Shown piece after piece: positions 1 through 55,608 of a DNA stretch of 64,000 nucleotides. Source of the DNA: an uncultured Lachnospiraceae bacterium. GTDB lineage: Bacteria > Bacillota > Clostridia > Lachnospirales > Lachnospiraceae. The translations under genes were made by a program, and so were the position numbers. The stretch covers positions 21,396-85,395 of the forward strand of contig CAKRPJ010000001.1 in assembly GCA_934376955.1 (NCBI GenBank), written 5' to 3'. Every line of letters begins with the position of its first letter. Position 1 is the stretch's first letter. The notes below the pieces were generated by a model. The model was not told the DNA's origin, ran no database searches, and saw only the letters and a program-made list of their open reading frames with translations.

Positions 1-1246
1 TATTTTTTATGATACCTGCGCCCTGCTCAATATGGGCGCACATGTTGTCGGTCGCCCATTTATTATCTCCGTCCAAACCCTGCTGGAGCTGGAATCCATC
101 AAAACCAGCCGCGCCAAAGATGAATCCGTTCGTTATCGTGCCCGCCAAATGACTCACTATCTCGATAGCACCCATGATTCCGACTTTTATCATGTCTCCA
201 ATGCTACCGATTATCTGAACGATGATGCCTGCCCGTTTCGCAGCACACTGCCCAACACCCCGGATTCCATCATCATTTATGCGGCCTGGAAAGCATACAG
301 CCAAAACCACGATATGATCTTCTGCACGGATGATCTCTGCTGCAAGCACCTGGCCTCTTCTCTTGCCCACCTGCCCGTCTGTTCTTCCAAGGATCTTCTC
401 CCTCGCCAAAGCTATACCGGCTTTCTGGAGGTCACTCCAACCAATGAGCAATACGCTGCCCTCTATGAACAGCCGGAACGAAATACCTTCGGCCTTATCT
501 CCAATCAATATCTTATCGCTCACAGCCCCGCAGACAGCTCCGTACAGGCGTTTAAGTGGGCAGACGGTAAATATGTCGCGGTGGATTATAAGCCCTTCAA
601 AACGCAGGCATTTGGCGCTGTCAGGGCCAAGGATAAAGATATCTACCAGATGCTCGCCTTTGATAGCCTTTTACATAACCAAATCACCATGTTGTGCGGT
701 CCTGCCGGTACTGGCAAAAGCTATCTGGCTCTGGCTCACATGCTCAAGCTGCTGGAAACCCATAAGATTGATAAAATCATCGTGTTCACCAACCCCTGCG
801 CCACATCCGGCGCTGCCCGTCTTGGTTTTTACCCCGGCACCCGCGATGAAAAGCTGCTTGACAGCCAAATCGGCAACATGCTCGGCGCGAAACTCGGCGA
901 TACCATGGAACTCCAGCGCTATATTGACGCCAACAAAATTCAGCTTCTCCCCTTCTCGGACCTGCGCGGCTTTGATACCACCGGCATGAACTGCGCCGTC
1001 TATATTACCGAGGCTCAGAACCTTGATATTGAAATGATGCGGCTTGCTCTTCAGCGTATCGGCGAAGATTCTATCTGTATCATTGATGGTGATTATGACG
1101 CCCAGGTCGATCTCGATATCTACTCTGGTGATAACAACGGTATGCGCCGCCTTTCCCAGGTCTTCCGCGGTCAGGATTTCTATGGCGAGGTCAAGCTCCA
1201 AAAAATCTACCGTTCCCGTATCGCCGCACTTGCACAGGAGATGTAA
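1..1246 (+). CDS. phoH: PhoH-like ATPase with N-terminal PIN domain (YlaK/PhoL-type); 5' end runs off the window (frame continues from nt 2, IFYDTCALL = PIN start)
   Basis: Walker A CGPAGTGKSYLALA and PhoH-like downstream motifs. N-terminal PIN-like segment starts before the first ATG. Confidence 0.85.
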   Translation, partial: IFYDTCALLNMGAHVVGRPFIISVQTLLELESIKTSRAKDESVRYRARQMTHYLDSTHDSDFYHVSNATDYLNDDACPFRSTLPNTPDSIIIYAAWKAYSQNHDMIFCTDDLCCKHLASSLAHLPVCSSKDLLPRQSYTGFLEVTPTNEQYAALYEQPERNTFGLISNQYLIAHSPADSSVQAFKWADGKYVAVDYKPFKTQAFGAVRAKDKDIYQMLAFDSLLHNQITMLCGPAGTGKSYLALAHMLKLLETHKIDKIIVFTNPCATSGAARLGFYPGTRDEKLLDSQIGNMLGAKLGDTMELQRYIDANKIQLLPFSDLRGFDTTGMNCAVYITEAQNLDIEMMRLALQRIGEDSICIIDGDYDAQVDLDIYSGDNNGMRRLSQVFRGQDFYGEVKLQKIYRSRIAALAQEM

Positions 1247-1249
1247 GCA

Positions 1250-1513
1250 ATGACAGCTAATACTGATAAACTTCTTTCAATTCTTACCGGCATTCTCATT
1301 ACCGTTCTGGTTTATTTTCTGGTCTTTTGGTTCCACCTGGCCCTCGCCAAGTTCATTTTGGTTCCCCTGTTTGGCACCGCCATCTGCTCCACATTGAATC
1401 AGTTATTCAATACCGCATCCTTCACCCCGCAAATGCTACCCTCTACATACGCCTGGGCCTGCCTGATCGGCGGCATCTTCTTCTGGGCTCATATCAGCAG
1501 CAGCAAGCATTGA
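1250..1513 (+). CDS. small membrane protein (2 predicted TM)
   Basis: Hydrophobic segments ILITVLVYFLVFWF and LIGGIFFWA. Start is 4 nt after the phoH stop. Confidence 0.4.
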   Translation: MTANTDKLLSILTGILITVLVYFLVFWFHLALAKFILVPLFGTAICSTLNQLFNTASFTPQMLPSTYAWACLIGGIFFWAHISSSKH

Positions 1514-1810
1514 TTATCTTTTCCGTCTTACCACCACTCGCGGCTGTGCATGCCCAAACAAACTCCGCTTCGGCATTTCAAACGCTGTTTCAAACTCCTC
1601 GTCAAATTTGGCCCGCACCTTAAAATAGTCTGTGATTTTTGCCTGGATCTCCCGCAGCGCCTGCTGTTCCTTTTCAATCTGGATGTATTGTTCTCTTGTG
1701 CAGCTGTCCCCTTCCTGTATCCGCTGTTTCCATTCGTTCAGGGCATCCTCCTGGTAGCCGCACAGTTCCAGCATCTCATTGCAAAATCTTACGCTTGTCG
1801 GTCCTGCCAT
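1514..1810 (-). CDS. hypothetical protein (98 aa)
   Basis: RBS AAGGAGTGG upstream of the ATG. Charged coiled-coil-like sequence. Confidence 0.5.
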   Translation of the reverse strand: MAGPTSVRFCNEMLELCGYQEDALNEWKQRIQEGDSCTREQYIQIEKEQQALREIQAKITDYFKVRAKFDEEFETAFEMPKRSLFGHAQPRVVVRRKR

Positions 1811-3432: not shown

Positions 3433-4619
3433 TTAACCGTCTCCAGCAGCTCTTTCAACTTCGCAGCTTTTTCAATCAGCTCTGTCAGCGTCTTAATGTC
3501 TTCTGTCCGCTGCTCCTGGCTCATCTTTTTCAGTCCTCTCTTATATGCCGGCGTTGCAATCTTCTTGCCAATCTTACCGGCCAGCGGCTGTAAAGTTTTC
3601 TGAACAAATGTTTTGGTTTCGGCTTTCTTCTCAGCAGTTTCAATCTCGCGTTCAAGTGCAGCCTGTTTTTCGGTTTCAGCAGGCTTTTCGGCCGCCATCT
3701 TTGTTTCAAGTGCGGCCACGCTTGTTTCAAAACTTTGTAATACCCGCTCCAGCCTCTCCTCGCGTTCTTCTGTCGAGTCTCCGTTCCAGGCATCGTCCAA
3801 TCCCTGCTGGGTATCATTGCGGATTCTGTCTCGGTCTTCTTCGTTCACACAGTTAATCGCAAACAATCTATTGTACAAACTCAAAAGTTCCTGTTGCTGT
3901 TTCTCTTCAAATTTGATCAATCTGTCGCATTCTGAGCGTTTCAGCTTTTTGTCATCCAGCAGTTTCAGCAGTCCTTTATTCAGCTCGTTTTCCAGGCGCA
4001 AATCTCTATCAATCATTTTCCCACTTGCGGCACTGATTTCTTTCAAGGCTTTCTTGGCCTCGGTCTGGTTCATGTTATATGGTTCTTCTTGTAAACACTC
4101 AATAAATTCAGCTGATGCCTTGCGCCGGATCATTTCATCCCCAAAACCACCGCGCACCTGCAGGTTAGCGCTGTACAAAATAACTTTCTTTTCATTGTGG
4201 GATAGGGGAGTGGTAACTACATTACAGTTCTTGGCCGCATTCCATGTCGCGTCCTGTTCCTGCAGCAGCATCAATGCTCGGTATCTCCGCTCGCCAGAAA
4301 GCAAAACATACACCGTCTTACCATCTTCCTGCTCAGGGAACACAACCAGGTTGTGCAGCAGGCCATTGCGCTTAATGTCTTCGGCTAATATTTCAATATC
4401 TTCTCCGTTGTCATTCTGACGGAAAATCTCGTTGTCCGGGTTCAGTCGGATGTCTGCCAGGCTGATATCCTTATTTTCAAACTCAATGGTCTTATTGCCA
4501 ACAATCTTTCCAACCAGGGCACGGCCGGCATCGTTATCGTTCACTTCTTTTGCTGCACTGCTGGTAGGAATGTTCAGTTTCTTTTCATTGCCTTTCTTCG
4601 GCTTTGATTTCAAACCCAT
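3429..4619 (-). CDS. parB: ParB-like partition protein (ParB/Srx N-terminal domain)
   Basis: GERRYRA motif in ...VLLSGERRYRALML. Likely start is the internal ATG at 4619, with RBS AAGGAGGA inside the parA 3' end; the ORF-table start is 4649. Confidence 0.85.
   Translation of the reverse strand: MGLKSKPKKGNEKKLNIPTSSAAKEVNDNDAGRALVGKIVGNKTIEFENKDISLADIRLNPDNEIFRQNDNGEDIEILAEDIKRNGLLHNLVVFPEQEDGKTVYVLLSGERRYRALMLLQEQDATWNAAKNCNVVTTPLSHNEKKVILYSANLQVRGGFGDEMIRRKASAEFIECLQEEPYNMNQTEAKKALKEISAASGKMIDRDLRLENELNKGLLKLLDDKKLKRSECDRLIKFEEKQQQELLSLYNRLFAINCVNEEDRDRIRNDTQQGLDDAWNGDSTEEREERLERVLQSFETSVAALETKMAAEKPAETEKQAALEREIETAEKKAETKTFVQKTLQPLAGKIGKKIATPAYKRGLKKMSQEQRTEDIKTLTELIEKAAKLKELLETVK
3876..3900. 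repeat. 25-bp repeat CAAACTCAAAAGTTCCTGTTGCTGT, copy 1, inside the parB coding sequence (putative parS/centromere site)
   Basis: Exact 25-mer shared with two copies upstream of parA. Contains an imperfect palindrome AACTcaaaAGTT. Confidence 0.6.
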
Positions 4620-4620
4620 C

Positions 4621-5475
4621 TCACTTTTCCTCCTTGTCCAGTTTTTCAAGCCGCTGTTTCAGCTCTTTATAAGCTGCCACATAGCTCTTGCCAATCGGTT
4701 GTGTTTTGGCAGAATAACATACCGGCACACATCTTCTCACCGATGTCTTCACGGCCAAAGCGCTGGGTATCTCAGTCTTGAACAGGGTAGGGCCAAGCAC
4801 TCTCTGACATTCTTCCCGCGTCTCTCTCGTGGCCGCACCCTTGTCCACCATGGTCAAAATCACGCCGATTCCTTTCAGGTTCGTCTTTGGGTTCTTGCGC
4901 AGCTCATTGCAAATGGAATAAGTTCTAAATGCTGAATCCTCAGAAAACGAATCGCACATCATCGGGATCAATACATAATCCGCTGCCACCAATGCGTTTG
5001 AAAGGATCATACTGTCACGGGTCGGCTGGGTATCTACAATGATATAATCATAGTTCTCCCGCACTTGGTCCAAAAAGTATAGCAAAAAGTCGGCTGTAGA
5101 TTCCAACCGTCTTGGGTCGCCCACATCATACTGCTGCGCATCAGCCAACAGGTCCGGCAGCCTCTTGTTGATCCGCGGTGTCTGGCTGCTTGCCGGGATC
5201 ATATCAACATTCTCATACTCTGTCCCCACAATATACTCTTTCGTGGAGGTGTACTTGAACCCGTCAAACATATCGTACAGCGCATTGCGGGAATAAGCAT
5301 TGCTTGTAATCGTATTGCCGCCGCTCAATGCAAAGGTCAAGTTGCCCTGCGGGTCGGTATCTACGCACAAAACCTTTTTTCCTTCATCCCCCATTAGGTA
5401 AGCAAGGTTAGAAGCCGTAACCGTCTTACCAGAGCCGCCTTTTTCAATCGCAATCGTAATAATTTTTGCTGCCAT
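4621..5475 (-). CDS. parA: ParA/Soj-family partition ATPase
   Basis: Deviant Walker A IAIEKGGSGKT. Size and downstream motifs fit ParA. Confidence 0.9.
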   Translation of the reverse strand: MAAKIITIAIEKGGSGKTVTASNLAYLMGDEGKKVLCVDTDPQGNLTFALSGGNTITSNAYSRNALYDMFDGFKYTSTKEYIVGTEYENVDMIPASSQTPRINKRLPDLLADAQQYDVGDPRRLESTADFLLYFLDQVRENYDYIIVDTQPTRDSMILSNALVAADYVLIPMMCDSFSEDSAFRTYSICNELRKNPKTNLKGIGVILTMVDKGAATRETREECQRVLGPTLFKTEIPSALAVKTSVRRCVPVCYSAKTQPIGKSYVAAYKELKQRLEKLDKEEK

Positions 5476-5492
5476 AGCTAACCCTCACTTGT

Positions 5493-5517
5493 CAAACTCA
5501 AAAGTTCCTGTTGCTGT
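5493..5517. repeat. 25-bp parS-like repeat, copy 2 (between rep and parA)
   Basis: Exact copy of the 25-mer. Confidence 0.6.
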
Positions 5518-5570
5518 TTAATTTGATTATATCACACTTCGTAGTAATGTCAACGGGGTAGAGCATCTGT

Positions 5571-5595
5571 CAAACTCAAAAGTTCCTGTTGCTGT
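5571..5595. repeat. 25-bp parS-like repeat, copy 3 (between rep and parA)
   Basis: Exact copy of the 25-mer, 78 bp from copy 2. Confidence 0.6.
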
Positions 5596-5642
5596 AACAA
5601 AGTTAAAAATAGGGGAGCCACCTCGTCAGCAGCTCCCCCTGG

Positions 5643-7196
5643 TTATTCTTCAAATGTTGTTTCATCCAGCTGAAACATCGGCTCTTTGCCGTCCTGTCCC
5701 ATCCGCCGTTTCCCGCCTTCAATGATCGTGGCGGAATTTTCTACAATGTCGCTGTACACCACCGTGCGGTAATACTGCGCAGATTTCTTTTCCACATCCT
5801 GCCTCAGCATCACGCTAAACTTCTCCAGTTCACCCAACGCCCAGCTTTTCAGCCCGTGGTTGTTCTGGATGATTCCGTTCAGCGCTTCCAGTGTTTCTTC
5901 AGCCTGGTCTTGTTTGTTCTGGTTGGTCAATATCTTGGCTGCATAAGTAAACACATTTGCCAAAACATTCCGCTCTTCTACGGTCAGCTCCTTCTTGTAG
6001 CCCGCATAGCCAGCCCGGTCTTCTATCTCGCTCCGCGCCTTGCGGAACGTCATTCCCATCACAGCCGGGGGCAGGGGAGAGACCTCTCCGGTTTCAGCCG
6101 CCAACACAGCTTGTTTCTTCGCCTTTTGTTTGCGTGCCACCTCCTGATCGCTGCGCTGGTTCGCGCTCAAAAACGCCCGTACCTTCTCCATCTCTTTGCG
6201 TGATTTGTACTTGATAAAGATATACAGATGAGTGTATTTCCGCACGCCCTTGGTTCGCACCGGCTCATAGTCAAACCACAGGTCTGTCATCTCATTGATC
6301 TCATTTTTTACCAGCTTCAAAACATTGCGTTCAAAGTCTGAAAAATTCGGGTACTTTTCTGTCAATGGTTTTTCGCGGTCATACTTGTTATCCACATCGG
6401 CTTTTTTGCGGTTCATGCCGCGCTCTTCTTTGGTCGGTACAGACAGCAGGTTTTTGAAATCATCAATGCCAAACTTTTTGTACTTGTATCCACGCAGCTG
6501 GTTCCGCTTTGCGGGGAACATCCCCAGCACCTCGTCCGTCACCGGCTCAAACACCAGTCCATTGGCGTATTCGTAGTCCCGGTTTCCATTATCATAAGAT
6601 AAAATAATTTCATACACCCGCATGGAATAGGTGCTCTGCATCATCAGCAGGTATTCAATGCTGTAAGATGTATAATTGCTTGTCAGCTGTGCAATATCTT
6701 TCCAAATGTCCTCATTGAACCGCATACTGATGGTTTTGCCCTCAGTATCAATGATCGAACCTTTGCGTACCCAGCTCATGCTCTTGTACTTGGTTGGGGC
6801 AATCGGTACCCAAAATGTCCGGTTCTCCAAATTTTCAATCGTGTGCTGCAAATATGCCACATAGGCCGGCTTTTCCGCATTCACGCCTGTCAGCTTTGAA
6901 AAGTCGCTGAACGTAATCGTGTAATACTTCGAAGCATCCGTGTCATTTTTCTGGTCGATCTTGGAAAGCAGCATGAACAAAATTTTCTGCTCGTTGCGCG
7001 GCAGGGAATACTTGGTCTTCTGGATCAGGTCATTGCTCTTGGTGATGTAAGAGCCAACGGCAAAAGGGGAGCCGGTCTTCTTTTCCTGCTCCTTTTTCGC
7101 CTTAACCTCTTCGTCCGTCATCACCTCTCCGGTAATCACCGTTCCTGTGCCTGCACGGTTTACTTTTTGGTCTTTCATTATTCTGTTCGCCCGCAT
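5643..7196 (-). CDS. rep: Rep_3-family (RepB-type, iteron-binding) replication initiator
   Basis: ...SYSIEYLLMMQSTYSMRVYEIIL... and ...FSDFERNVLKLVKNEINEMTDLWFDYEPVRTKGVRKYTHLYIFI match the Rep_3 core signature. The iteron field lies immediately upstream. Confidence 0.85.
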   Translation of the reverse strand: MRANRIMKDQKVNRAGTGTVITGEVMTDEEVKAKKEQEKKTGSPFAVGSYITKSNDLIQKTKYSLPRNEQKILFMLLSKIDQKNDTDASKYYTITFSDFSKLTGVNAEKPAYVAYLQHTIENLENRTFWVPIAPTKYKSMSWVRKGSIIDTEGKTISMRFNEDIWKDIAQLTSNYTSYSIEYLLMMQSTYSMRVYEIILSYDNGNRDYEYANGLVFEPVTDEVLGMFPAKRNQLRGYKYKKFGIDDFKNLLSVPTKEERGMNRKKADVDNKYDREKPLTEKYPNFSDFERNVLKLVKNEINEMTDLWFDYEPVRTKGVRKYTHLYIFIKYKSRKEMEKVRAFLSANQRSDQEVARKQKAKKQAVLAAETGEVSPLPPAVMGMTFRKARSEIEDRAGYAGYKKELTVEERNVLANVFTYAAKILTNQNKQDQAEETLEALNGIIQNNHGLKSWALGELEKFSVMLRQDVEKKSAQYYRTVVYSDIVENSATIIEGGKRRMGQDGKEPMFQLDETTFEE

Positions 7197-46452: not shown

Positions 46453-47340
46453 CTATGCGGCTCTTAGCCTTTCCCAGCAATTTGGGTATTTAATTATTTG
46501 ACACCTGCATCCTACACAACTATTCCCCTTGTGTAAACGGGCATACAATTTACCACTGGTGCCTTTATTTTTAATAAGTGACGTTACAAGCCCTGCACTT
46601 ACACCACTTATTGCAACTGGAATTAGTCCAATATTATCAACGAGTTTTACAACTGCATCGGCAGCATTAGTAATCCATGTTGCCAGTTCGATAAACTTTT
46701 TAACTATATCGCTATCCAGCACATCCTTAGAAAGCTTCTCAAATGCTGCTGTGAACTGCGAAATCTTACCATTGATACTATTAAGGTAAGTCTCATTTTC
46801 TTTTGTGGCGCTGCCGGCAGATTCAGCAGCAGTCTTGGCGGCATCCTGTGCGTCCTTCCAGTTGTCCAGCATACCGGAAACAACGTTAGCGCGGTTCTTG
46901 CCAGCAACCTGTTCCAACAGGGATGCTTTGTCGACGTCGTTCATTTCTTTCCAGACGTTGGCAATGCCTTCCATGATTTCATAGGTGGACTTAAAATCCC
47001 CGCTCTTGGTTAAGATATCAAATCCGCCCTTACCGTCAACATTGGTCAATGCCTTGATCTGGTCACGCAGTTTAGAGGTGCTTACTGCTACATCATCAGT
47101 GCTTTCGCCCATCTGTTCAAGATCGGTCTTTGCGCCACGGATGCGCAGTGACAATACTTTCAGCGCGTTACCTACCGACTCCGGGTCCTGCGCAACATCA
47201 TTGGCAGCCACAATCATACCAATACTCTGATCCAACGTGTTTCCTGCGGTATGCAAGGCGGATGCCGAGCGCTGTAGCGCACTGCCAACTCCAGCCGAGG
47301 AGATGGCATAATTATTCAAGCTGTTACTTTCACGGATCAA
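46453..47340 (-). CDS. tape measure protein, downstream segment (continues the TP901-type core region; last ~35 aa of the ORF look non-native)
   Basis: NNYAISSAGVGSALQRSASALHTAGNTLDQSIGMIVAANDVAQDPESVGNALKVLSLRIRG continues the core begun in 47561..52711, but in another frame. Confidence 0.7.
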   Translation of the reverse strand: MIRESNSLNNYAISSAGVGSALQRSASALHTAGNTLDQSIGMIVAANDVAQDPESVGNALKVLSLRIRGAKTDLEQMGESTDDVAVSTSKLRDQIKALTNVDGKGGFDILTKSGDFKSTYEIMEGIANVWKEMNDVDKASLLEQVAGKNRANVVSGMLDNWKDAQDAAKTAAESAGSATKENETYLNSINGKISQFTAAFEKLSKDVLDSDIVKKFIELATWITNAADAVVKLVDNIGLIPVAISGVSAGLVTSLIKNKGTSGKLYARLHKGNSCVGCRCQIIKYPNCWERLRAA

Positions 47341-47755
47341 CCGTTACTGACCGTAAACAATACGGCGGGTAGTCATTTCTGGCTACCTCTCATGTTTCAA
47401 GTATTAGGTTATAGCATGAGTTCGGACTGTATATTACCGATGTCTTATCGGAATTTACTTCAACATACCTGTTGCCAAGTATATCCTGCAGTCTCTAGGG
47501 ATTTATAGAATTTAACGATTTTATCTTCAACTTGTTCCGCAGTTAAAGTGTATGGCAATCTTAACAACGGAATTTTATTATCTTTTCGTTTGTTAGAGAT
47601 TGTTCCTTTAATAAACTGACCTTTGTTATTTCTTGTACACATAAAAAAATAACCTCCCTATTGCCATATAGGAAGTTATCGTTAAATTCCATATCTTTCC
47701 TCGGTCTTGGGTGCCTCCACCCTTTAACCGATATAGTAAATTTGGGGCAATGTTG
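47341..47755 (-). other. intervening sequence of ~410 nt splitting the tape measure gene (group I intron-like, boundaries approximate)
   Basis: The conserved core is interrupted between ...FNEVGK(Q) and (S)LNNYAISS. The insert contains stop codons and a free-standing small ORF with its own RBS. Confidence 0.5.
47460..47642 (-). CDS. 60-aa ORF inside the intervening sequence; degenerate HNH homing-endonuclease-like N-terminal fragment
   Basis: NNKGQFIKGTISNKRK resembles the GQF.KGH.PWNKG motif of phage HNH endonucleases. RBS GGGAGG. Confidence 0.4.
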   Translation of the reverse strand: MCTRNNKGQFIKGTISNKRKDNKIPLLRLPYTLTAEQVEDKIVKFYKSLETAGYTWQQVC

Positions 47756-50700
47756 TTTACCCACCTCATTAAATTTATCAACAATGCTGGTTACATCTTT
47801 CGCTTCAACGCCAAACGCTTTCATTGTGGAAATGATAGATTCACTAGCGTCATTGACACTAGAAATTCCATCCCCCACATGTTGGTACAGAACGGCCGCG
47901 TCAGCCAATTCTTTGGAATCTTTCAAATTGTAACCTAACCGTGCAAAATCAGCACTGGCCGTTACAATATCGCTGATAGAAGCGCCCAGATTCTTTGCTC
48001 GCGTACCGGCATCATCCAAAAACGCATCGTATGTATTATCGGTTTCGTTTGTAACCTTTTTCAGCTCGGTCATGGCAGAATCAATATTCACCACGTTCTG
48101 GTAAATCTGTCGCAACCCTTGCTGAACCATGTTAATTACCTGGCTGGCAAACTGACTCTTGATATTTGTCTCAAACAGCTTTTTGAACTTCATTGCCAGT
48201 GTGTCAGTTTCAAGCCCAGCATCCTGTACTGCCTTTTTCAGTTCAGCAAATTCCTTGGATGCTTTGCTTGCATATTCCTGGCCGTTTTGCTGTGTGATTT
48301 TCCCGGATTCTAGCAATTTCTGGTAGCGTTCAATATATTCGAGATACCGTGCATATATCGCAGGATCAGTTGTAATTTTAGAGTTATTAGACAAATACCT
48401 CTGTGCTGTATACAAAGAATTAGAAACACTCTTAATATAAGTGTTCACATCACGCTGAGATTTAAGGTTGCCATTAAACTTATCAGCTTCCGCCTTTGTT
48501 TCGCCAATCTTTGTTTTAACAGCGTTCAACGCATCAGAGACACTTTCAATCGGTGTTTTGGCATTTTCAAACTGCTTGGCCATTGCAGCAATAAAAGTTG
48601 GAACGTCAGCCGCAGATTTAACCTTTTCGGCTTCTTCAACCATCTTTTTAAGAGCACTTTCAGTTTGCTGGTAAATACCATTATCCTTAAATCCCTTATT
48701 GCCAGCGCTCCGCTGTAAAGCCGTTAGCATCGTCTGGTGGTTTGCCAAAAAGTCCTTAATCTGCTCAAACTGGCGCTCATTACTTCTAACGCTATTATCA
48801 GCCATGGTGTCATTGGCTGTATTTACTGCTGTTGTAAAATTTTTAGCAGCAGATGCGCAATTATTCATAGCGATTTTAAGCTTGTCAAAGTTTTCGGAAC
48901 TCCAGTCTTTTTCATACTCTTTTCTGGCTTTTTCTAAAGCTGTTTGAGTCTCTTTGAATTCTTCTCGCAAACGAGTAATTTTTGCGCTTTCTGTACCATT
49001 TACGTCTAGCTTCGAAGCCTTAGAGATGCTGGCGGCAGGATCAATTTTAGAAAGCTCTTGTAACTGAGCTGTCTGGGTTTTAATGTCTGCAATATCTTTT
49101 TCTGCTGCCCTTATTGCAGTTTGAAGAACGTCTGCATTCCTATCCCCGCCTTCTTTATCAAGGCGAGTAATAATCTCTAAAACGTATGAAAGATCGGCAG
49201 AAAGTTTTTTTACTGAATTATCATAATTTTCAGTCGTTTTATTGTCGAATTGAAATTTAGCAGCCTCATCGTATGCCTGAGTAAACTCGGCCCATTTGGC
49301 CACATTAGTCAGCAAGGCATTTGTACTTTCCGATTCTTCATTGGCTACTTGCGCCGCCGCTTTGGCCGCTTCCTGGGTTTCTTTATTAACCTGCTTTACA
49401 CCTTCCGCCATCTCGGTGGTCCGGCTAACAATATCTGCCCATGTTGTTGCGGCTTTTTCGCTGCCATTATAAAAGGCAGTAATGTCATCATTCAGTTCAG
49501 CAAATTGCTTGGTATAACTATCTTTTACAGCGCCTTCTGGCATCTGCTTAATCATTGCACCAAGATTACCGGTCTTCATTGCCAGCGATGTTACATGGCT
49601 ATTATCAGGGCTGGTTTGCAGCATCGCGTCCTTGCGGATCTTAGTGGAGATTTTCTTAATCTGCTCATCAACAGAGTTGTTAATCAGCTCCGCAAACTGA
49701 TCCATGTTTACCTCGTCGGTCATGGTTTTCAGTTTAGCAAGATCCGTCATGCTGTCCGTGATGCTCTTGGCTGCATTCGTTAGACTATTAAATACGGCAG
49801 TAATTTCCGCAAAGCCATTCACAATGTCAGTCTTGGCCTTTTTAGCATCTGTCGTACTCTTCTGTGCCTTGGCAAGTTTTGCATCAAGGCCGCTGGTATC
49901 TTTCAGCGTAGTCAGTGCCTGACTCAATGCTTCATCCAGTGTTGCCTTAAATCGCTGGGTGGCTTCTGCTACTGCTGCATCAACTTTCGGCGTCACCGTC
50001 TTGCCGTTCTCATCTTTCGGCAGTTTAACGCTGTTGATGGCACTCAGCTCACCAATGGACTTCTTATAAAAATCAACGATGTTGTTGATAAAGTTCCCAA
50101 GCTTGCGATAAGTTGTCGCATTCTTGCTGCCATCAATCTCTGCCACTTTGTCCAGGTTTTCCTGTAACCCTGCTGCAATGTTAGCATAACTGGTAAACAG
50201 CCGCTTCAATCGGTTCCCGGCGTTCACAAGGGTCTTTACACTAGCATCAATTGTTCCGCTGGCCTGTGCAGCTTCGCTCAGTGCGGTGGTAACCCGTCCA
50301 ACCTTTTCGCCGGCATTATTCAGGGTCGCACCAACAGTTTCCATCTGGGCAGAAAACTCCTGTGCAGCACTCTGCTGTTGTTTTGCCGCATCGGCCGTTG
50401 TAGTCGCTGTACGCTCGCCAGTGGTTTTATAAGCCAGAATAATAGCGTTTACTTCATCAGATGCCGCAATAATCTGCGCTGCTTTTTCAGCAAACCCATT
50501 TGTCGCAGCGCCAATCTTGGCAAACTTGGTAAACACCGTGTGGATTTGAGTGCTCGCCTCATTCGCTTTTGCAACACTGGCAGCCACATCATCCATGCTG
50601 TCAGTTTCAGTGACGGCTTTCTTCCCGCGCTTGGCTTTGGTTACGGTTCCGTTTATAAGGCCAGCGTTAGTCTTTATGTCAGCTAGGGATTCACTATACT

Positions 50701-52711
50701 GCTTAAAAGTATTGTTCAGGGCAGTTGCAGCCTCAATCATGGGGCGGGTCGCTTCTTTTGCTCCGTCTGCACTGGTAGCCGCTGTTTTCAATTCGGTCGT
50801 AATGGTGTTAATTGAATTACTGGCATTGGTGATAGCATTTTTAACCGTGTCCGCCGCTTTTTCTGCGTTCAATACCAACTGCTGCAGCTTTACAGCTTCA
50901 TCAACCTCGGTGGTTTCGGTTTTCTGTGTTTTCTTGCCACGCTTCCCCTTAGTCGGTTTATCCTCCTTGGTCAGGCTGGTTAAAAAGGCAGTCGAGATTG
51001 CTAAGGTTTTATTGATGCTGTCAATGGCTGCATTAAATTCAGCAGCTTTTGTTTTGGTCGTTTCCAGCTTCGGGTTGCTCTCTACCACAGAATTAACAAA
51101 CGCAGAAACTTTATCCAAAACATCTTTTACCTTGCTGGGGTTAATCGCAGAAAGTGTTTCAAGCAAAGTTTTCGCATCATCAGCCTTGTTTTTACCATCT
51201 GTAATACCGGTAGCCTCAGATTTTAATTTTGAAATTTCTTCTGCAATCTGCTCTTTTTGCTTAACCAGGGTCTGAAGAGCATCAATGCTTTTTTTAGTTT
51301 CTGTGTAAATGGCCTGCTCAGCCTCTAATGTACCATTTTTTGCAGCAGTGACATCCTTTTGCTTTTGAGCCATCGTATCAAGCTGAGAAATAATAGTTTC
51401 AGTAGTGCTTTTTATACGGGCTGTTATTTCAGTATCATCCAAATCCGGTTCAGACATGGTTTTTAACTCTGTCTGCGCATCACTTATTCCGGCAACTTTA
51501 TTTTGAAGTTCTTTTTTTCGTTGTTCAATTCTTTCTTCAACAGCCTGGATTGTATTGTCTATACCAGAAACCATTTGATTTTTTACACTATCAGGTAAAA
51601 TACCAATGGTCGAAGCAATCTCAACCCAATACTCTTGATAATCTTTTGCAGCAGTTTCAACCTCTTCTTCTGTTGATGTAGAACTTAATACTTTTTGACG
51701 GGCTTCATTTAACTTTTTAAACAAGCTTTTAAGAGTCGCAGTATAATTCAAGGCGGCAGAATTTAATTCTTCCGATGCCTTCATATCTATAGCCTTAATT
51801 ACTGTTTTGAACTGTTTCGCTACCTTGTTAGAGTCTTCTTCAGTCTCCGCCAACTGATCCTTTACATAATCAGTAAAACTTTCATACCCTACATCAGGAT
51901 CATCCCACTTTACGATATCTTCAAAGACATTGAAAACTTGTTTGATTTTATCAGTTTCGTTTCCAACGACATTTTTAATCTCTACTGCGCCTTTCTCAAA
52001 GCTATCACTCATCAAAGAAAAATAAGTGTCTATATCCTTACTGATATCATTAGAATTTTCCTGTAATCCCTGTTTTAATGTAGGATTTTTAAGAGTGCTT
52101 AAAAGTTTTTGCTGAAAAGAAGAAATTTCAGAAGAAACATCGTTTCCATTTTTTGCTTTTTCGTCGTCATTAGAATTTGTAGTTTCTGCATTTATTTCGG
52201 CAACAAGTGTTTTGATGTCAGAAATATTTTCTTTTATTTTTTGGTACTGCTTTATTTTTGTATTAAGAGCCGAAATCTCAGTATCTTTATTTATACTGTT
52301 TTTAAGTTCTCGTTCTTGTGTTGCAGTAAGCTTGATTCCCTCATTTAGCTGCTTTTGTGCGACAATCTGCTCTTGAGTGGCACTTGCGAGTTCTTTTCGT
52401 TTCTGTACACTACCAGTAAGTAGATTTATATTAGAAGTAAGCGCCGCCTGTTCCCGCTTTTGTGCCTGTTCAATAACTGCGGCTGCCTGCTGGGCGCTTT
52501 TAGCGTAGTCGTCAATAGCCTTCATGGTATTGGCCATTGCCTTTTCCATCGCCCCGGATATAGTCTGACTGATGCTCTTTAGCTGTGTCTTTAGGTTTTT
52601 ATCGCCAATCTGTACATTAAACTTTTTGTCTTTTGCAATCTCATTCAGTTTCCCCTGCACACCACCGCCGTCAGGTTCCACTTTTACCTTAATACTTAAA
52701 TCTTCCGCCAT
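47561..52711 (-). CDS. tape measure protein, upstream segment (1716-aa ORF; native sequence ends near 47756, the remainder is read-through into the insert)
   Basis: Very long coiled-coil. C-terminal ...TELKKVTNETDNTYDAFLDDAGTRAKNLGASISDIVTASADFARLGYNLKDSKELADAAVLYQHVGDGISSVNDASESIISTMKAFGVEAKDVTSIVDKFNEVG is a TP901-type TMP core. RBS AAGGGGG. Confidence 0.75.
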   Translation of the reverse strand: MAEDLSIKVKVEPDGGGVQGKLNEIAKDKKFNVQIGDKNLKTQLKSISQTISGAMEKAMANTMKAIDDYAKSAQQAAAVIEQAQKREQAALTSNINLLTGSVQKRKELASATQEQIVAQKQLNEGIKLTATQERELKNSINKDTEISALNTKIKQYQKIKENISDIKTLVAEINAETTNSNDDEKAKNGNDVSSEISSFQQKLLSTLKNPTLKQGLQENSNDISKDIDTYFSLMSDSFEKGAVEIKNVVGNETDKIKQVFNVFEDIVKWDDPDVGYESFTDYVKDQLAETEEDSNKVAKQFKTVIKAIDMKASEELNSAALNYTATLKSLFKKLNEARQKVLSSTSTEEEVETAAKDYQEYWVEIASTIGILPDSVKNQMVSGIDNTIQAVEERIEQRKKELQNKVAGISDAQTELKTMSEPDLDDTEITARIKSTTETIISQLDTMAQKQKDVTAAKNGTLEAEQAIYTETKKSIDALQTLVKQKEQIAEEISKLKSEATGITDGKNKADDAKTLLETLSAINPSKVKDVLDKVSAFVNSVVESNPKLETTKTKAAEFNAAIDSINKTLAISTAFLTSLTKEDKPTKGKRGKKTQKTETTEVDEAVKLQQLVLNAEKAADTVKNAITNASNSINTITTELKTAATSADGAKEATRPMIEAATALNNTFKQYSESLADIKTNAGLINGTVTKAKRGKKAVTETDSMDDVAASVAKANEASTQIHTVFTKFAKIGAATNGFAEKAAQIIAASDEVNAIILAYKTTGERTATTTADAAKQQQSAAQEFSAQMETVGATLNNAGEKVGRVTTALSEAAQASGTIDASVKTLVNAGNRLKRLFTSYANIAAGLQENLDKVAEIDGSKNATTYRKLGNFINNIVDFYKKSIGELSAINSVKLPKDENGKTVTPKVDAAVAEATQRFKATLDEALSQALTTLKDTSGLDAKLAKAQKSTTDAKKAKTDIVNGFAEITAVFNSLTNAAKSITDSMTDLAKLKTMTDEVNMDQFAELINNSVDEQIKKISTKIRKDAMLQTSPDNSHVTSLAMKTGNLGAMIKQMPEGAVKDSYTKQFAELNDDITAFYNGSEKAATTWADIVSRTTEMAEGVKQVNKETQEAAKAAAQVANEESESTNALLTNVAKWAEFTQAYDEAAKFQFDNKTTENYDNSVKKLSADLSYVLEIITRLDKEGGDRNADVLQTAIRAAEKDIADIKTQTAQLQELSKIDPAASISKASKLDVNGTESAKITRLREEFKETQTALEKARKEYEKDWSSENFDKLKIAMNNCASAAKNFTTAVNTANDTMADNSVRSNERQFEQIKDFLANHQTMLTALQRSAGNKGFKDNGIYQQTESALKKMVEEAEKVKSAADVPTFIAAMAKQFENAKTPIESVSDALNAVKTKIGETKAEADKFNGNLKSQRDVNTYIKSVSNSLYTAQRYLSNNSKITTDPAIYARYLEYIERYQKLLESGKITQQNGQEYASKASKEFAELKKAVQDAGLETDTLAMKFKKLFETNIKSQFASQVINMVQQGLRQIYQNVVNIDSAMTELKKVTNETDNTYDAFLDDAGTRAKNLGASISDIVTASADFARLGYNLKDSKELADAAVLYQHVGDGISSVNDASESIISTMKAFGVEAKDVTSIVDKFNEVGKQHCPKFTISVKGWRHPRPRKDMEFNDNFLYGNREVIFLCVQEITKVSLLKEQSLTNEKIIKFRC

Positions 52712-54114: not shown

Positions 54115-55608
54115 TCAGGCAGTTACTTCGGGTTGAATCTCTTTTGGAGTGTTCAAAAAGTCATGCAGCTGTCTGAGAGAATGTAAAGTGCATTGGGTTC
54201 TGCGCTCAATGTCAGGAACTTTGGCCTTACATTGAGACCATGCCTTTTTTGACATGGGTTTTGTTACCTCGCGGATAAAATAGCGTGCGCCGATATTGTA
54301 GCACGCATTCAAATCCGCATTGTATTGTTTGCTGCTTGCAAAAGTAGCAAGGGAATGGTTATCTGGTGCGCGTTTTACTTTGCCGCTGCCGTCATACGCA
54401 AGTTTGCTGGTTCCCCAAGCGCAGATGTGCGAAATGCGGATACCACAGCGGTGAGCTTTATGCTCTGCAATGTGCTGGATACCATTTTTACGCCACATCT
54501 GGATTTTCTGCTTCTTGGACGATGCTTTCTTGCCTTTGAAGTCTAAATGTTCAAAGACAATTACATCGGCAGAATAGAGGACCGCGAATTCTACAACCGC
54601 GGCAGCAATCTTTTTGGATAATTCATCATTAACGCGCTTTGCATAGGCCCAAAAGTTATGTGCTTCACGGGACCCATGTAGTCTTTGGAACTTCTTGATG
54701 CGGTTAAGCACATGATACAGATGGTCTTTGTCACTTGGGAAGTTGATAAAACTCCTGGCAAGGATAGTTCCATCAGCAGTCATGATGCTGCATACCGCAT
54801 CGGTATTGAGACCTAAATCGACGGCACAGACGCGCTGCTTATCGATAGGGGTATCACTCAGTTTAACGTTTTCATCGAACGCAAAACGAAGGCTGTATTT
54901 GCCAAAATGCTTTTCGAGTATAGGGGCTGACGCACAAGCGTGCATCCAGTATTTGCGCAAGTAAGCAATATCTGTCTTACGCAGCGTGACGGTTGCCCAT
55001 ACCCAGTCGTTTTTATAGAAAACCTTCAAGCGGACAGTATAGTGATTGCTCAAAGCAGTCAGCTCATTTTGGGAGTTCTGCAGTTCAACAGCTTTGCGCT
55101 TTGCTTTCTCGATTTTCTTTTCTTCTGCCGTAAGTTCGTCCTTAGGTTTAGGATTTTTTATGACTTTCACTTTTTCGGGTGCGCCGTCCACGAGGAACAT
55201 ATCATCGCGGAAGAATATAGGGAGAGCCTTTCTGTCCACTTGAAGGGTAGGCTGTTTATCCTTTTTGTCGGACACTTCCCAATTTGCCAAGTTGCTGCGA
55301 TAACTGCTCACCGCACCAATAGCGACCGTAATGGTTGCACGACGCAGATACGACGGATACTTATAGAACAACTTGTCGAAATCAGGATACTTGGCTTCAT
55401 GGTTTTTGGTGCTATGAACCAGTTTATCAATATAGCGCTGTTGCTCAAGATTACCGGTATCGATGCGTTTAACAGCATTCCAGTTTTCATTGACAACGCC
55501 AATCAGATAGGCGAGCGCCTTGCGATAAATACAAACAGTTTCATTGAGATTTACACTACAATTAACGATTCTTACCTGATAGCTAGATGTAATATTCAAA
55601 GCACTCAC
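54115..55608 (-). CDS. tnpB: TnpB-like RuvC-fold transposon-associated nuclease (497 aa)
   Basis: RuvC-I VCAVDLGLN, RuvC-II VIVFEHLD, RuvC-III YNADLNACYNIG. The zinc-finger segment between II and III has only one Cys. Confidence 0.8.
   Translation of the reverse strand: MSALNITSSYQVRIVNCSVNLNETVCIYRKALAYLIGVVNENWNAVKRIDTGNLEQQRYIDKLVHSTKNHEAKYPDFDKLFYKYPSYLRRATITVAIGAVSSYRSNLANWEVSDKKDKQPTLQVDRKALPIFFRDDMFLVDGAPEKVKVIKNPKPKDELTAEEKKIEKAKRKAVELQNSQNELTALSNHYTVRLKVFYKNDWVWATVTLRKTDIAYLRKYWMHACASAPILEKHFGKYSLRFAFDENVKLSDTPIDKQRVCAVDLGLNTDAVCSIMTADGTILARSFINFPSDKDHLYHVLNRIKKFQRLHGSREAHNFWAYAKRVNDELSKKIAAAVVEFAVLYSADVIVFEHLDFKGKKASSKKQKIQMWRKNGIQHIAEHKAHRCGIRISHICAWGTSKLAYDGSGKVKRAPDNHSLATFASSKQYNADLNACYNIGARYFIREVTKPMSKKAWSQCKAKVPDIERRTQCTLHSLRQLHDFLNTPKEIQPEVTA

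Follow-up and report, generated by a model that had tools for sequence, protein, structure and literature searches.

A probable group I intron with an extra P7-P3' hairpin in the TP901-family tape-measure gene of a human-gut phage

Why is the tape-measure gene of a large gut phage broken in the middle of its conserved core? The question is raised by a stretch of 64,000 nucleotides (nt), in the following called the window, from an uncultured Lachnospiraceae bacterium (GenBank assembly GCA_934376955.1, contig CAKRPJ010000001.1, positions 21,396 to 85,395 of the forward strand). The host element is a ~146-kb SPbeta-like phage of human-gut Firmicutes. Its TP901-type tape-measure protein (TMP) gene, located on the minus strand, is interrupted at ...KFNEVG-NNYAISS... 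(here and below, a hyphen within a peptide marks the insertion point). An earlier note on this DNA had explained the break by a group I intron whose homing endonuclease gene has decayed. Our analysis makes it very likely that window 47758..47317 is a group I intron carrying an extra hairpin between P7 and P3', and we propose a mechanism and an origin for it. The earlier proposal is borne out by intron-less alleles, by covariation, by P1 and P10 pairings that track the exons and by a series of alleles at the same site. Group I introns whose homing endonuclease gene has degenerated are an ordinary type of element, and the host gene is already known for such introns. New here are boundaries exact to the base, a structure, supported by covariation, for a family undetected by Rfam, a revised endonuclease class and a probable second intron.

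Boundaries of the insert

Two open reading frames (ORFs), which lie in different frames, share the tape-measure gene.

52711..47561, minus strand: upstream tape-measure ORF, 1716 amino acids (aa)
47340..46453, minus strand: downstream tape-measure ORF, 295 aa, with a possible TTG start at 47340

As the earlier note had observed, the TMP core is divided between them. Pfam profile PF10145 (PhageMin_Tail, the TP901 core) matched the upstream ORF with positions 4-87 and the downstream ORF with positions 87-201; since nothing is lost or duplicated in these halves, one domain has been cut at a single point. Joining 47759 to 47316, which takes out 442 nt, resulted in one open frame of 1938 aa. The joined protein gave a single PF10145 match over positions 3-201 of 201 with 86 bits, compared to 30.8 and 40.4 bits for the separate halves, and reached 99.9 bits with TIGR01760 (tape_meas_TP901). 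A continuous TP901 core region is present only once the 442 nt are taken out.

The insert comprises exactly 442 nt (window 47758..47317, minus strand), and its boundaries are fixed to the base by intron-less alleles. At least 22 related contigs, human-gut metagenome contigs of 145-147 kb among them, lack exactly these bases. These relatives read ...GAGGTGGGT followed directly by AATAATTATGC..., which is the predicted ligated junction; in 22 intron-less contigs AAATTTAATGAGGTGGGT is joined to AATAATTATGC with no bases between. An exact 29-mer across the junction was found in 12 IMG/VR contigs and in 8 contigs from human-gut metagenomes, of which four measure 145-147 kb. The intron-less insertion site has the sequence GATAAATTTAATGAGGTGGGTAATAATTATGCCATC, with AATGAGGTGGGT adjoining AATAATTATGCC at the nucleotide level and FNEVGNNYAISSAGVGSALQR as junction peptide. 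In the 92%-identical protein P0001 the sequence is unbroken across the site (...SIVDKFNEVGNNYAISSAGVGSAL...), and the Logan contig encoding it, L002, reads aatgaggtgggt followed by aataattatgc. Homologues of 49-58% identity are also continuous over the insertion site. No target-site duplication was found at the junction.

Because contigs bearing the junction are genome assemblies of 145-147 kb, they represent DNA alleles and not cDNA. A cDNA origin of L002 was considered and rejected, as this contig carries genes on both strands and, compared with the window, several other deletions, and the same junction occurs in the 145-147-kb DNA contigs. Relative to window 45228..51289, L002 is without ~1.9 kb and 457 nt of TMP coding sequence, the 457-nt gap taking out part of the TP901 core; the length of the tape measure consequently varies among close relatives. 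An insertion between the two ORFs had been described in the earlier note and is real, but its size of ~410 nt was wrong. The gene can be described as follows.

47759..52711, minus strand: tape-measure exon 1, 1651 codons, ending ...AAT GAG GTG GGT (N E V G), with U47759, the 5' splice-site U, as its last base
47317..47758, minus strand: probable group I intron 1, 442 nt, with 5' end AAACAACAUUGCCCC and 3' end ...GUAACAGCUUG, terminal G at 47317
46552..47316, minus strand: tape-measure exon 2, 255 codons, beginning AAT AAT TAT GCC (N N Y A); its probable end is ...ACC AGT GGT

The lower end of exon 2 was placed by the Rfam RF00028 alignment of a second intron (see below) together with the end of protein similarity among three TMP types. 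Intron 1 has a G+C content of 36.7%, compared to a window average of 47%, and its folding energy corresponds to z = -4.9 against shuffled sequences.

Ribozyme fold and guide sequence

The fold of intron 1 was made by hand, guided first by the homologous intron of the Thomasclavelia phage TR-TP1 and then by IMG/VR relatives found with core patterns. Manual folding of P1 to P9 had been suggested in the earlier note; all group I core helices were found, and they are supported by covariation.

47745..47762, minus strand: P1 hairpin, exon GGGU and intron AA (47762..47757) with guide UUGCCC (47750..47745)
47698..47742, minus strand: 5' half of the core, P3 5' strand through P6 5' strand
47742..47735 with 47459..47452: P3, AAUUUACU with AGUAAAUU
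47731..47727 with 47705..47701: P4, UCGGU with ACCGA, preceded by J3/4 AUA
47717..47714: loop GAGG of P5 (GGGUG with CACCC), flanked by J4/5 UAAA and J5/4 AAG
47700..47698 with 47501..47499: P6, GGA with UCC
47692..47678 with 47519..47505, minus strand: P6a stem, 15 bp, the loop of which holds an ORF
47424..47501, minus strand: 3' half of the core, P6' through P7'
47495..47489 with 47429..47424: P7, G-(A)-GACUG with bulged A, pairing with CAGUCC
47484..47463: P7.1 hairpin, 8 bp, loop GGCAAC, between P7 and P3'
47451..47437: P8, CCGAU with AUCGG, followed by J8/7 UAAUAUA (47436..47430)
47317..47420, minus strand: peripheral 3' domain, P9 (CUCAUG with CAUGAG), P9.1, P9.2 and P9.3, then GAAAGUAACAGCUUG and terminal G47317

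The P3/P7 pseudoknot and the bulged P7 are present, and similarity to the RF00028 consensus is seen in the R and S elements (AGAGACUGCAGG versus AaAGACUAAAcGg and AAUAUACAGUC versus AAGAUAUAGUC; the two elements can also be written AGAGACUGCAGG and AAUAUACAGUCC). The 5' splice site lies in a U·G wobble (U47759·G47748), AUU at 47751..47749 can form a P10 of 3 bp with AAU of the 3' exon, and the intron ends ...CUUG with G47317 as terminal base. Moreover, CCU in L9 (47408..47406) can pair with AGG of the L5 loop. Every helix is intact in the window copy and all family-invariant positions are kept. The TR-TP1 stem homologous to P6a has a different yet complementary sequence (CUUAUUUAACUU with AAGUUAAAUAAG).

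Group I introns of subgroup IA are defined by the extra pairings P7.1 and P7.2 between P7 and P3'. Intron 1 and its relatives carry a single 8-bp hairpin at this place, with the loop GGYAAC across relatives; no P7.2 was seen in them. A first hand fold, in which GAUAUA right after P7 served as P3', was dropped when more relatives showed the local 8-bp P7.1 there and P3' after it.

For covariation analysis, 29 diverse mini-introns (less than 97% identical), in which the P6a loop was swapped for a linker, were aligned with MAFFT (alignment A1). We scored 63 pairs from P3 to P9.3, including the P3/P7 pseudoknot and the L5-L9 contact, corresponding to 1797 cells. Standard pairs occupied 93.4% of the cells, compared to 31-42% when the partners were slid by 1-3 columns, and both-sided, compensatory changes were found in 50 of the 63 pairs. 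None of 500 shuffles matched any of the observed covariation measures, a statistic that is inflated by kinship among the sequences; the slid-partner control and the counts of pair types are free of that problem. Pairing was complete (100% of cells) in P4, P6, P7 and P9 and high in P3 (89%, four covarying pairs), P5 (95%), P7.1 (98%, all eight pairs covarying), P9.1 (99%), P9.2 (97%) and P9.3 (87%). P8 was paired in just 60% of cells because MAFFT misaligns this stem of variable length. The P7 5' strand reads G-(A/C)-GACUR across relatives. Next to the P7 bulge, 13 sequences have a G-C pair and 16 an A-U pair; for the closing pair of P7 the numbers are 19 (G-C) and 10 (A-U). AAUAUA-AGUC, AAA of J4/5 and AG of J5/4 are invariant or nearly so. 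Substitutions between alleles likewise leave the stems paired.

The Watson-Crick loop-loop contact between L5 and L9 is paired in 93% of cells and all three of its pairs covary (A1 columns 30-32 with 224-226), as exemplified by GAGG/CCU in the window, GGCA/UGC in TR-TP1 and AGGGAA/UUCCCU in L046. It apparently replaces a tetraloop-receptor contact. In some family members this contact reaches 4-6 bp.

The guide sequence appears to follow each intron's own exons. At all sites the exon 5' of the intron ends in GU (GGU in all those listed), and the intron carries GCC along with bases that match more upstream positions of the exon. On the 5' side of GCC, four bases correspond to the start of the 3' exon (AUU/AAU, CAAU/GUUG, UUGU/GCAA or ACAG, GAAU/GUUC and UAGU/GCUA). 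Among 22 introns, summed contiguous P1 pairs amounted to 106, compared to 81±3 after permutation, and the P10 sum was 65, compared to 39±5; in neither case did any of 5000 permutations reach the observed value. P10 played no part in choosing the splice sites. These were read by eye, as automated maximisation of stem length had picked spurious sites. The flank of L137 was entered wrongly in the guide test, and the correct bases give 2 pairs instead of 0.

Several points weigh against a group I intron at this locus. The earlier note had proposed a search with the group I model RF00028 as a check, and this search was negative: there was no match to intron 1 in the whole window at the gathering threshold or in 1.1 kb and 468 nt around the insert (E <= 1, E <= 10), and none to the 278-nt ORF-less intron of L010 or to five further family loci. 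In fact, no Rfam family matched intron 1 in the window search. Pairing with the exons is short, with just 4 base pairs in P1 and 3 in P10. Search patterns that hold parts of P4, J3/4 and P7 constant had been used to collect the covariation sequences, which were also trimmed manually; the splice sites of the guide test were transcribed by hand and chosen partly by P1 pairing, which makes the P1 figure partly circular. Finally, no stop interrupts the exon-1 frame over the first 65 codons of the insert (47758..47561), from P1 through the P6a 5' strand, until the frame closes at 47561, and ribosomes reading this frame could disturb the folding of P1 to P6. Phage group I introns often halt ribosomes early.

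The negative RF00028 result was set aside, the full group I core having emerged from hand folding and covariation. The model does detect a different intron in L133 (44 bits) and L115 (37.5 bits) as well as the second intron of the window (25 bits). A match to it is a detection tool and not a defining feature of group I introns; taken alone, this search would have led wrongly to a dismissal of the group I reading. That RF00028 misses the family of intron 1 agrees with the acknowledged inability of this single model to capture the structural diversity of group I subtypes (PMC6125680). The check fails for the whole family, and a dedicated covariance model built from our alignment would allow many gut-phage genomes to be corrected.

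The intron ORF, the allele series and alternative explanations

Within the loop of P6a lies a short ORF, found as described in the earlier note.

47642..47460, minus strand: 60-aa ORF with ribosome binding site GGGAGG at 47658..47653, 10 nt upstream

Its last ~16 codons overlap P6', P7 and P7.1. On its own the 60-aa ORF had no Pfam or PHROG match, and tblastn against phage records gave only hits with E >= 0.1, so that the resemblance to HNH enzymes noticed in the earlier note was not significant by itself. Its origin became apparent from L013, L018 and L024, in which the same intron occupies the same site with 1267 nt and a 335-aa ORF: the 60-aa ORF consists of residues 1-21 fused in frame to residues 297-335 of the longer one, corresponding to a deletion of 825 nt (aa 22-296). 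Judged from these full-length alleles, it is the decaying remnant of a putative homing endonuclease gene. All five differences among alleles of the 60-aa ORF change amino acids, so that there is no sign of selection on it.

That the ORF is a decayed homing endonuclease was correctly predicted in the earlier note; its assignment to the HNH class was not upheld. The 335-aa protein matched PHROG 559 and 374 ('HNH endonuclease'), 9084 ('homing endonuclease') and 7140 ('intron encoded nuclease') with E = 5e-44 to 5.5e-20; for the homing-endonuclease families the values run from 5e-44 to 2.6e-28. No HNH Pfam domain was found in the 60-aa ORF, the 335-aa ORF or gp30, the intron ORF of TR-TP1. Full-length relatives carry a C-terminal DUF2726 domain of the PD-(D/E)xK type (27.2 bits, threshold 24.7). 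With a profile of 15 family intron ORFs, the best match of solved structure was 3r3p, the catalytic domain of I-Bth0305I, at a weak E = 0.025, followed by the DUF559-like protein 3hrl (E = 0.067); a phmmer search of the 335-aa ORF against the Protein Data Bank (PDB) returned nothing relevant, and 3r3p was reached only by the profile search. I-Bth0305I is the prototype of the Vsr-like 'EDxHD' homing endonucleases (Taylor et al. 2011, PMC3239194; PDB 3R3P). D, E and K residues invariant in the 15 intron ORFs correspond to positions 247, 261 and 290, all within the deleted segment 22-296, and the window copy keeps none of the conserved nuclease residues. The N-terminal part of the 335-aa enzyme contains repeated CxCxCGN...SCGC zinc modules. 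These similarities suggest that the ancestral enzyme was Vsr-like (EDxHD/DUF2726) rather than HNH, in which case 'HNH' would be a misnomer.

The collected loci show the site in several forms. The census covers these loci, and their sampling is biased by the search patterns.

0 nt (intron-less): 22 loci
442-444 nt: 11 loci, namely the window and 10 on viral contigs of 38-139 kb
1267 nt, intact ORF: 3 loci (L013, L018, L024)
331 nt, larger deletion: 1 locus (L021)

One site displays four stages, namely empty, with intact endonuclease gene, with in-frame deletion and with larger deletion. This series is what a cycle of homing-endonuclease decay would predict. Furthermore, a 278-nt ORF-less intron occupies the same site in a diverged TMP (L010, L070).

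We propose the following mechanism. The late transcript would fold into the ribozyme, and the internal guide UUGCCC would pair with the end of exon 1, setting U47759 in the U·G wobble. A free guanosine bound in P7 would attack after U47759. G47317 would then occupy the guanosine site, and ligation of exon 1 to exon 2 would restore ...KFNEVG-NNYAISS... and with it the continuous TMP core. The intron presumably arrived by homing through the 335-aa endonuclease encoded in the P6a loop, the target of which would have been the insertion site. The 825-nt in-frame deletion, which took all conserved nuclease residues, would have left an intron that no longer moves on its own and that may persist because splicing makes it nearly harmless. 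We infer that the window copy still splices, since the 442-nt allele persists in many large viral contigs and is thus presumably tolerated, which requires splicing.

An improbable alternative is a dead intron that has inherited its fold and splices inefficiently, so that the phage makes a 1716-aa and a separate 295-aa protein or is defective. The endonuclease has indeed already been destroyed, the exon-1 frame remains open over 65 intron codons and a TTG at 47340 could start the downstream ORF. In contrast, the helices and family-invariant positions of the window copy are all preserved, and the substitutions between alleles keep the stems paired. The 442-444-nt allele recurs in the large viral contigs of the census, and a permanent split would cut the conserved TP901 core mid-way.

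It is far less probable that the tape measure is natively encoded by two genes with ordinary intergenic DNA and a small gene between them. Gene callers and public annotation separate such loci: P0002, a 295-aa protein, stands for 387 member sequences, and the TR-TP1 locus is annotated as gp29, gp30 and gp31. However, in the intron-less sister genomes the gene is continuous and its junction agrees to the base, which contradicts two native polypeptides in relatives, the case that the earlier note had named as speaking against an intron. Moreover, the break lies inside a single Pfam domain and the spacer carries the conserved, covarying ribozyme fold.

Equally improbable is another mobile element, be it a remnant of an insertion sequence or miniature inverted-repeat transposable element, a group II intron, or an IStron tied to the TnpB-like ORF 6.4 kb off (54115..55608), given that the junction shows neither terminal inverted repeats nor a target duplication, that 442 nt without a reverse transcriptase are too small for a group II intron and match no Rfam family, that the family profile finds one copy in the window and none beside the TnpB-like gene, and that the fold topology is that of group I.

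A group I intron, then, remains the favoured explanation, and its main consequence concerns annotation. Such TMP genes are split into a truncated TMP, an 'HNH endonuclease' or small hypothetical protein and a 'TP901 family tape measure' fragment. Fragments like those in the 387-member cluster inflate protein families, and estimates of tail length from TMP length are misled. The principles of group I introns are unchanged by these findings.

Related introns, a second intron and neighbouring genes

A pattern scan of viral contigs revealed at least 120 loci of the intron 1 family. Members occupy at least six different tape-measure sites, of which the following were tabulated; further sites were seen.

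...NEVG-NN(F/Y)AIS...: site of the window, the commonest
...R(I/L)RG-A...: L045, L046, L084b, L103
...VG-TALK...: L084a, L157
...SV-VQNPE...: L066
...YEEG-VGW...: TR-TP1

The same ribozyme has been retargeted to several TMP sites by changes of its guide sequence. Up to two or three family copies occur within one tape-measure gene. L084 carries two ORF-less copies at 1110..1770 with a 36-nt exon between them (TALKTVSARIRG), and L143 has three tandem 5'-core motifs at ~4030..6760. A different, RF00028-detectable intron lies ~150 nt upstream of a family member in L133 (2428..2858, 44 bits) and L115 (130..534, 37.5 bits), both scores below gathering; in L133 it has an insertion of ~110 nt between P7 and P3', the same place as P7.1. 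A pattern scan of genome contigs gave just two loci, one of them a chance match, and blastn of intron cores against isolate phages and plasmids returned only TR-TP1 and TR-TP2, or nothing.

These two Thomasclavelia phages (PQ571309 and PQ571310) are the only isolate phages with the family in the collections searched. Their intron shares 78% identity with intron 1 over the R-to-S core and a homologous 5' part, is also inside the tape-measure gene and shows compensatory changes in P3, P5, P6, P6a, P8 and P9. In contrast to the window copy, the TR-TP1 intron has an intact 415-aa endonuclease and another site (...RVYEEG-VGWTWQ...). It comprises 1531 nt (L001, 1647..3176), and gp29, gp30 and gp31 correspond to exon 1, intron ORF and exon 2; the public record lists them as separate genes, as tape measure, 'HNH endonuclease' and hypothetical protein, with no intron annotated.

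Intron 1 resembles phage IA2 introns (T4 td, nrdB and nrdD, Twort orf142, SPO1 DNA polymerase) in its group I core, extra structure between P7 and P3' and P9.1/P9.2. Its ORF is looped from the peripheral stem P6a, as in T4 td. It differs from IA2 introns in having a single P7-P3' hairpin (P7.1), no P2 in the window copy, a Watson-Crick L5-L9 contact and no detection by RF00028. The putative ancestral endonuclease is, like I-Bth0305I, encoded in a phage intron and combines a C-terminal, probably Vsr-like nuclease domain with N-terminal DNA-binding modules, but these are zinc modules here (NUMOD4 in TR-TP1) and not NUMOD2/HTH, and the similarity is weak (E = 0.025).

Group I introns are known from three TMP sites in prophages of the Bacillus cereus group, with P1 adapted to each site (Tourasse & Kolsto 2008, PMC2504315). 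These introns, TMP-IVS1, IVS2 and IVS3, include that of lambdaBa01 of B. anthracis, belong to subgroup IA1/IA2 and in many cases lack an intact endonuclease gene (PMC2504315). They are similar to the present family in host gene, element class, use of multiple TMP sites, retargeting through P1 and the guide, and the many copies without a complete endonuclease gene, the assignment to subgroup IA being made on the B. cereus side (IA1/IA2). Unlike them, the present introns reside in human-gut Firmicutes phages of ~146 kb. No nucleotide similarity to the B. cereus TMP introns was found in the phage and plasmid collections searched, a search that did not extend to the chromosomal prophages themselves.

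At its extreme 3' end, the tape-measure gene of the window contains a second candidate.

46180..46551, minus strand: intron 2, of canonical group I appearance; it encloses the annotated stop (46453)

In a search restricted to a short stretch, RF00028 aligned over its full length at 46561..46180 with 25.2 bits and E = 1.8e-4, which falls short of the gathering score (50); a search over 5.7 kb missed it. Intron 2 has textbook P, Q, R and S elements, and RNAalifold showed 27 compensatory pairs. Its conserved elements are the following.

46491..46468: AAAUACCCAAAUUGCUGGGAAAGG
46332..46319: AAUCAGCAGCCAAG
46266..46246: GGUUCAUCGACUGUAUGGGUA
46217..46199: GAAGAAAGACAGUCAGAAC
P9: UUACGG-GAAA-GCCGUAA

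The RF00028 model puts the splice-site U on U46552, directly after ...ACC AGU GGU, and the last G on G46180. Intron 2 is nearly identical in L184, the TMP of which has 57% protein identity. It always ends ...GAAGGUUAUAA, followed by unrelated sequence, namely a terminator, promoter-like DNA or a gene cassette. Its exact splice sites are uncertain, and it could instead be a 3'-end ribozyme.

Intron 2 extends over ~35 codons at the end of the 295-aa ORF and over 270 nt past its stop. The downstream exon ORF reported in the earlier note is present, but its true end is not 46453, as these last codons lie in intron 2. If intron 2 splices, the stretch of 33 residues (KLYARLHKGNSCVGCRC...) that precedes the annotated stop would be intron sequence, and the TMP would continue for just 1-14 codons past the 3' splice site, according to which candidate G is used (G46180 or G46176) and what sequence follows.

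It is possible, and we suggest it with considerable reserve, that these introns represent a large uncatalogued group I family specialised in tape-measure genes of gut Firmicutes phages, all with Vsr-like endonucleases, invisible to RF00028 and held by L5-L9, the splicing of which may be regulatory. If so, the gene would undergo two splicing events, the second near its stop, and splicing efficiency could set the amount of full-length TMP as well as its C-terminus, a regulatory layer and not pure parasitism.

Directly after intron 2 lies a 732-nt cassette (window 46168..45437, minus strand) with a 91-aa ORF (46136..45861) and a gene for a 140-aa retropepsin-like aspartyl protease (PF13650; 45864..45442). 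The cassette is absent from L002, L012, L019, L020 and L025, and other DNA takes its place in L005, L018, L023 and L024. The region between intron 2 and a terminator-like hairpin is a variable slot.

The TnpB-like ORF mentioned above (54115..55608, minus strand, 497 aa) lies within the phage structural module. It matched NCBIfam guided_TnpB with E = 1.2e-15 and 57.7 bits (cut-off 100) and had no Pfam or PHROG match at 1e-3. A 1170-aa ORF ~5 kb downstream of the tape-measure gene (37639..41151, minus strand) gave weak matches to PHROG families annotated as 'tail length tape measure protein' (E = 1e-9 and 1e-5).

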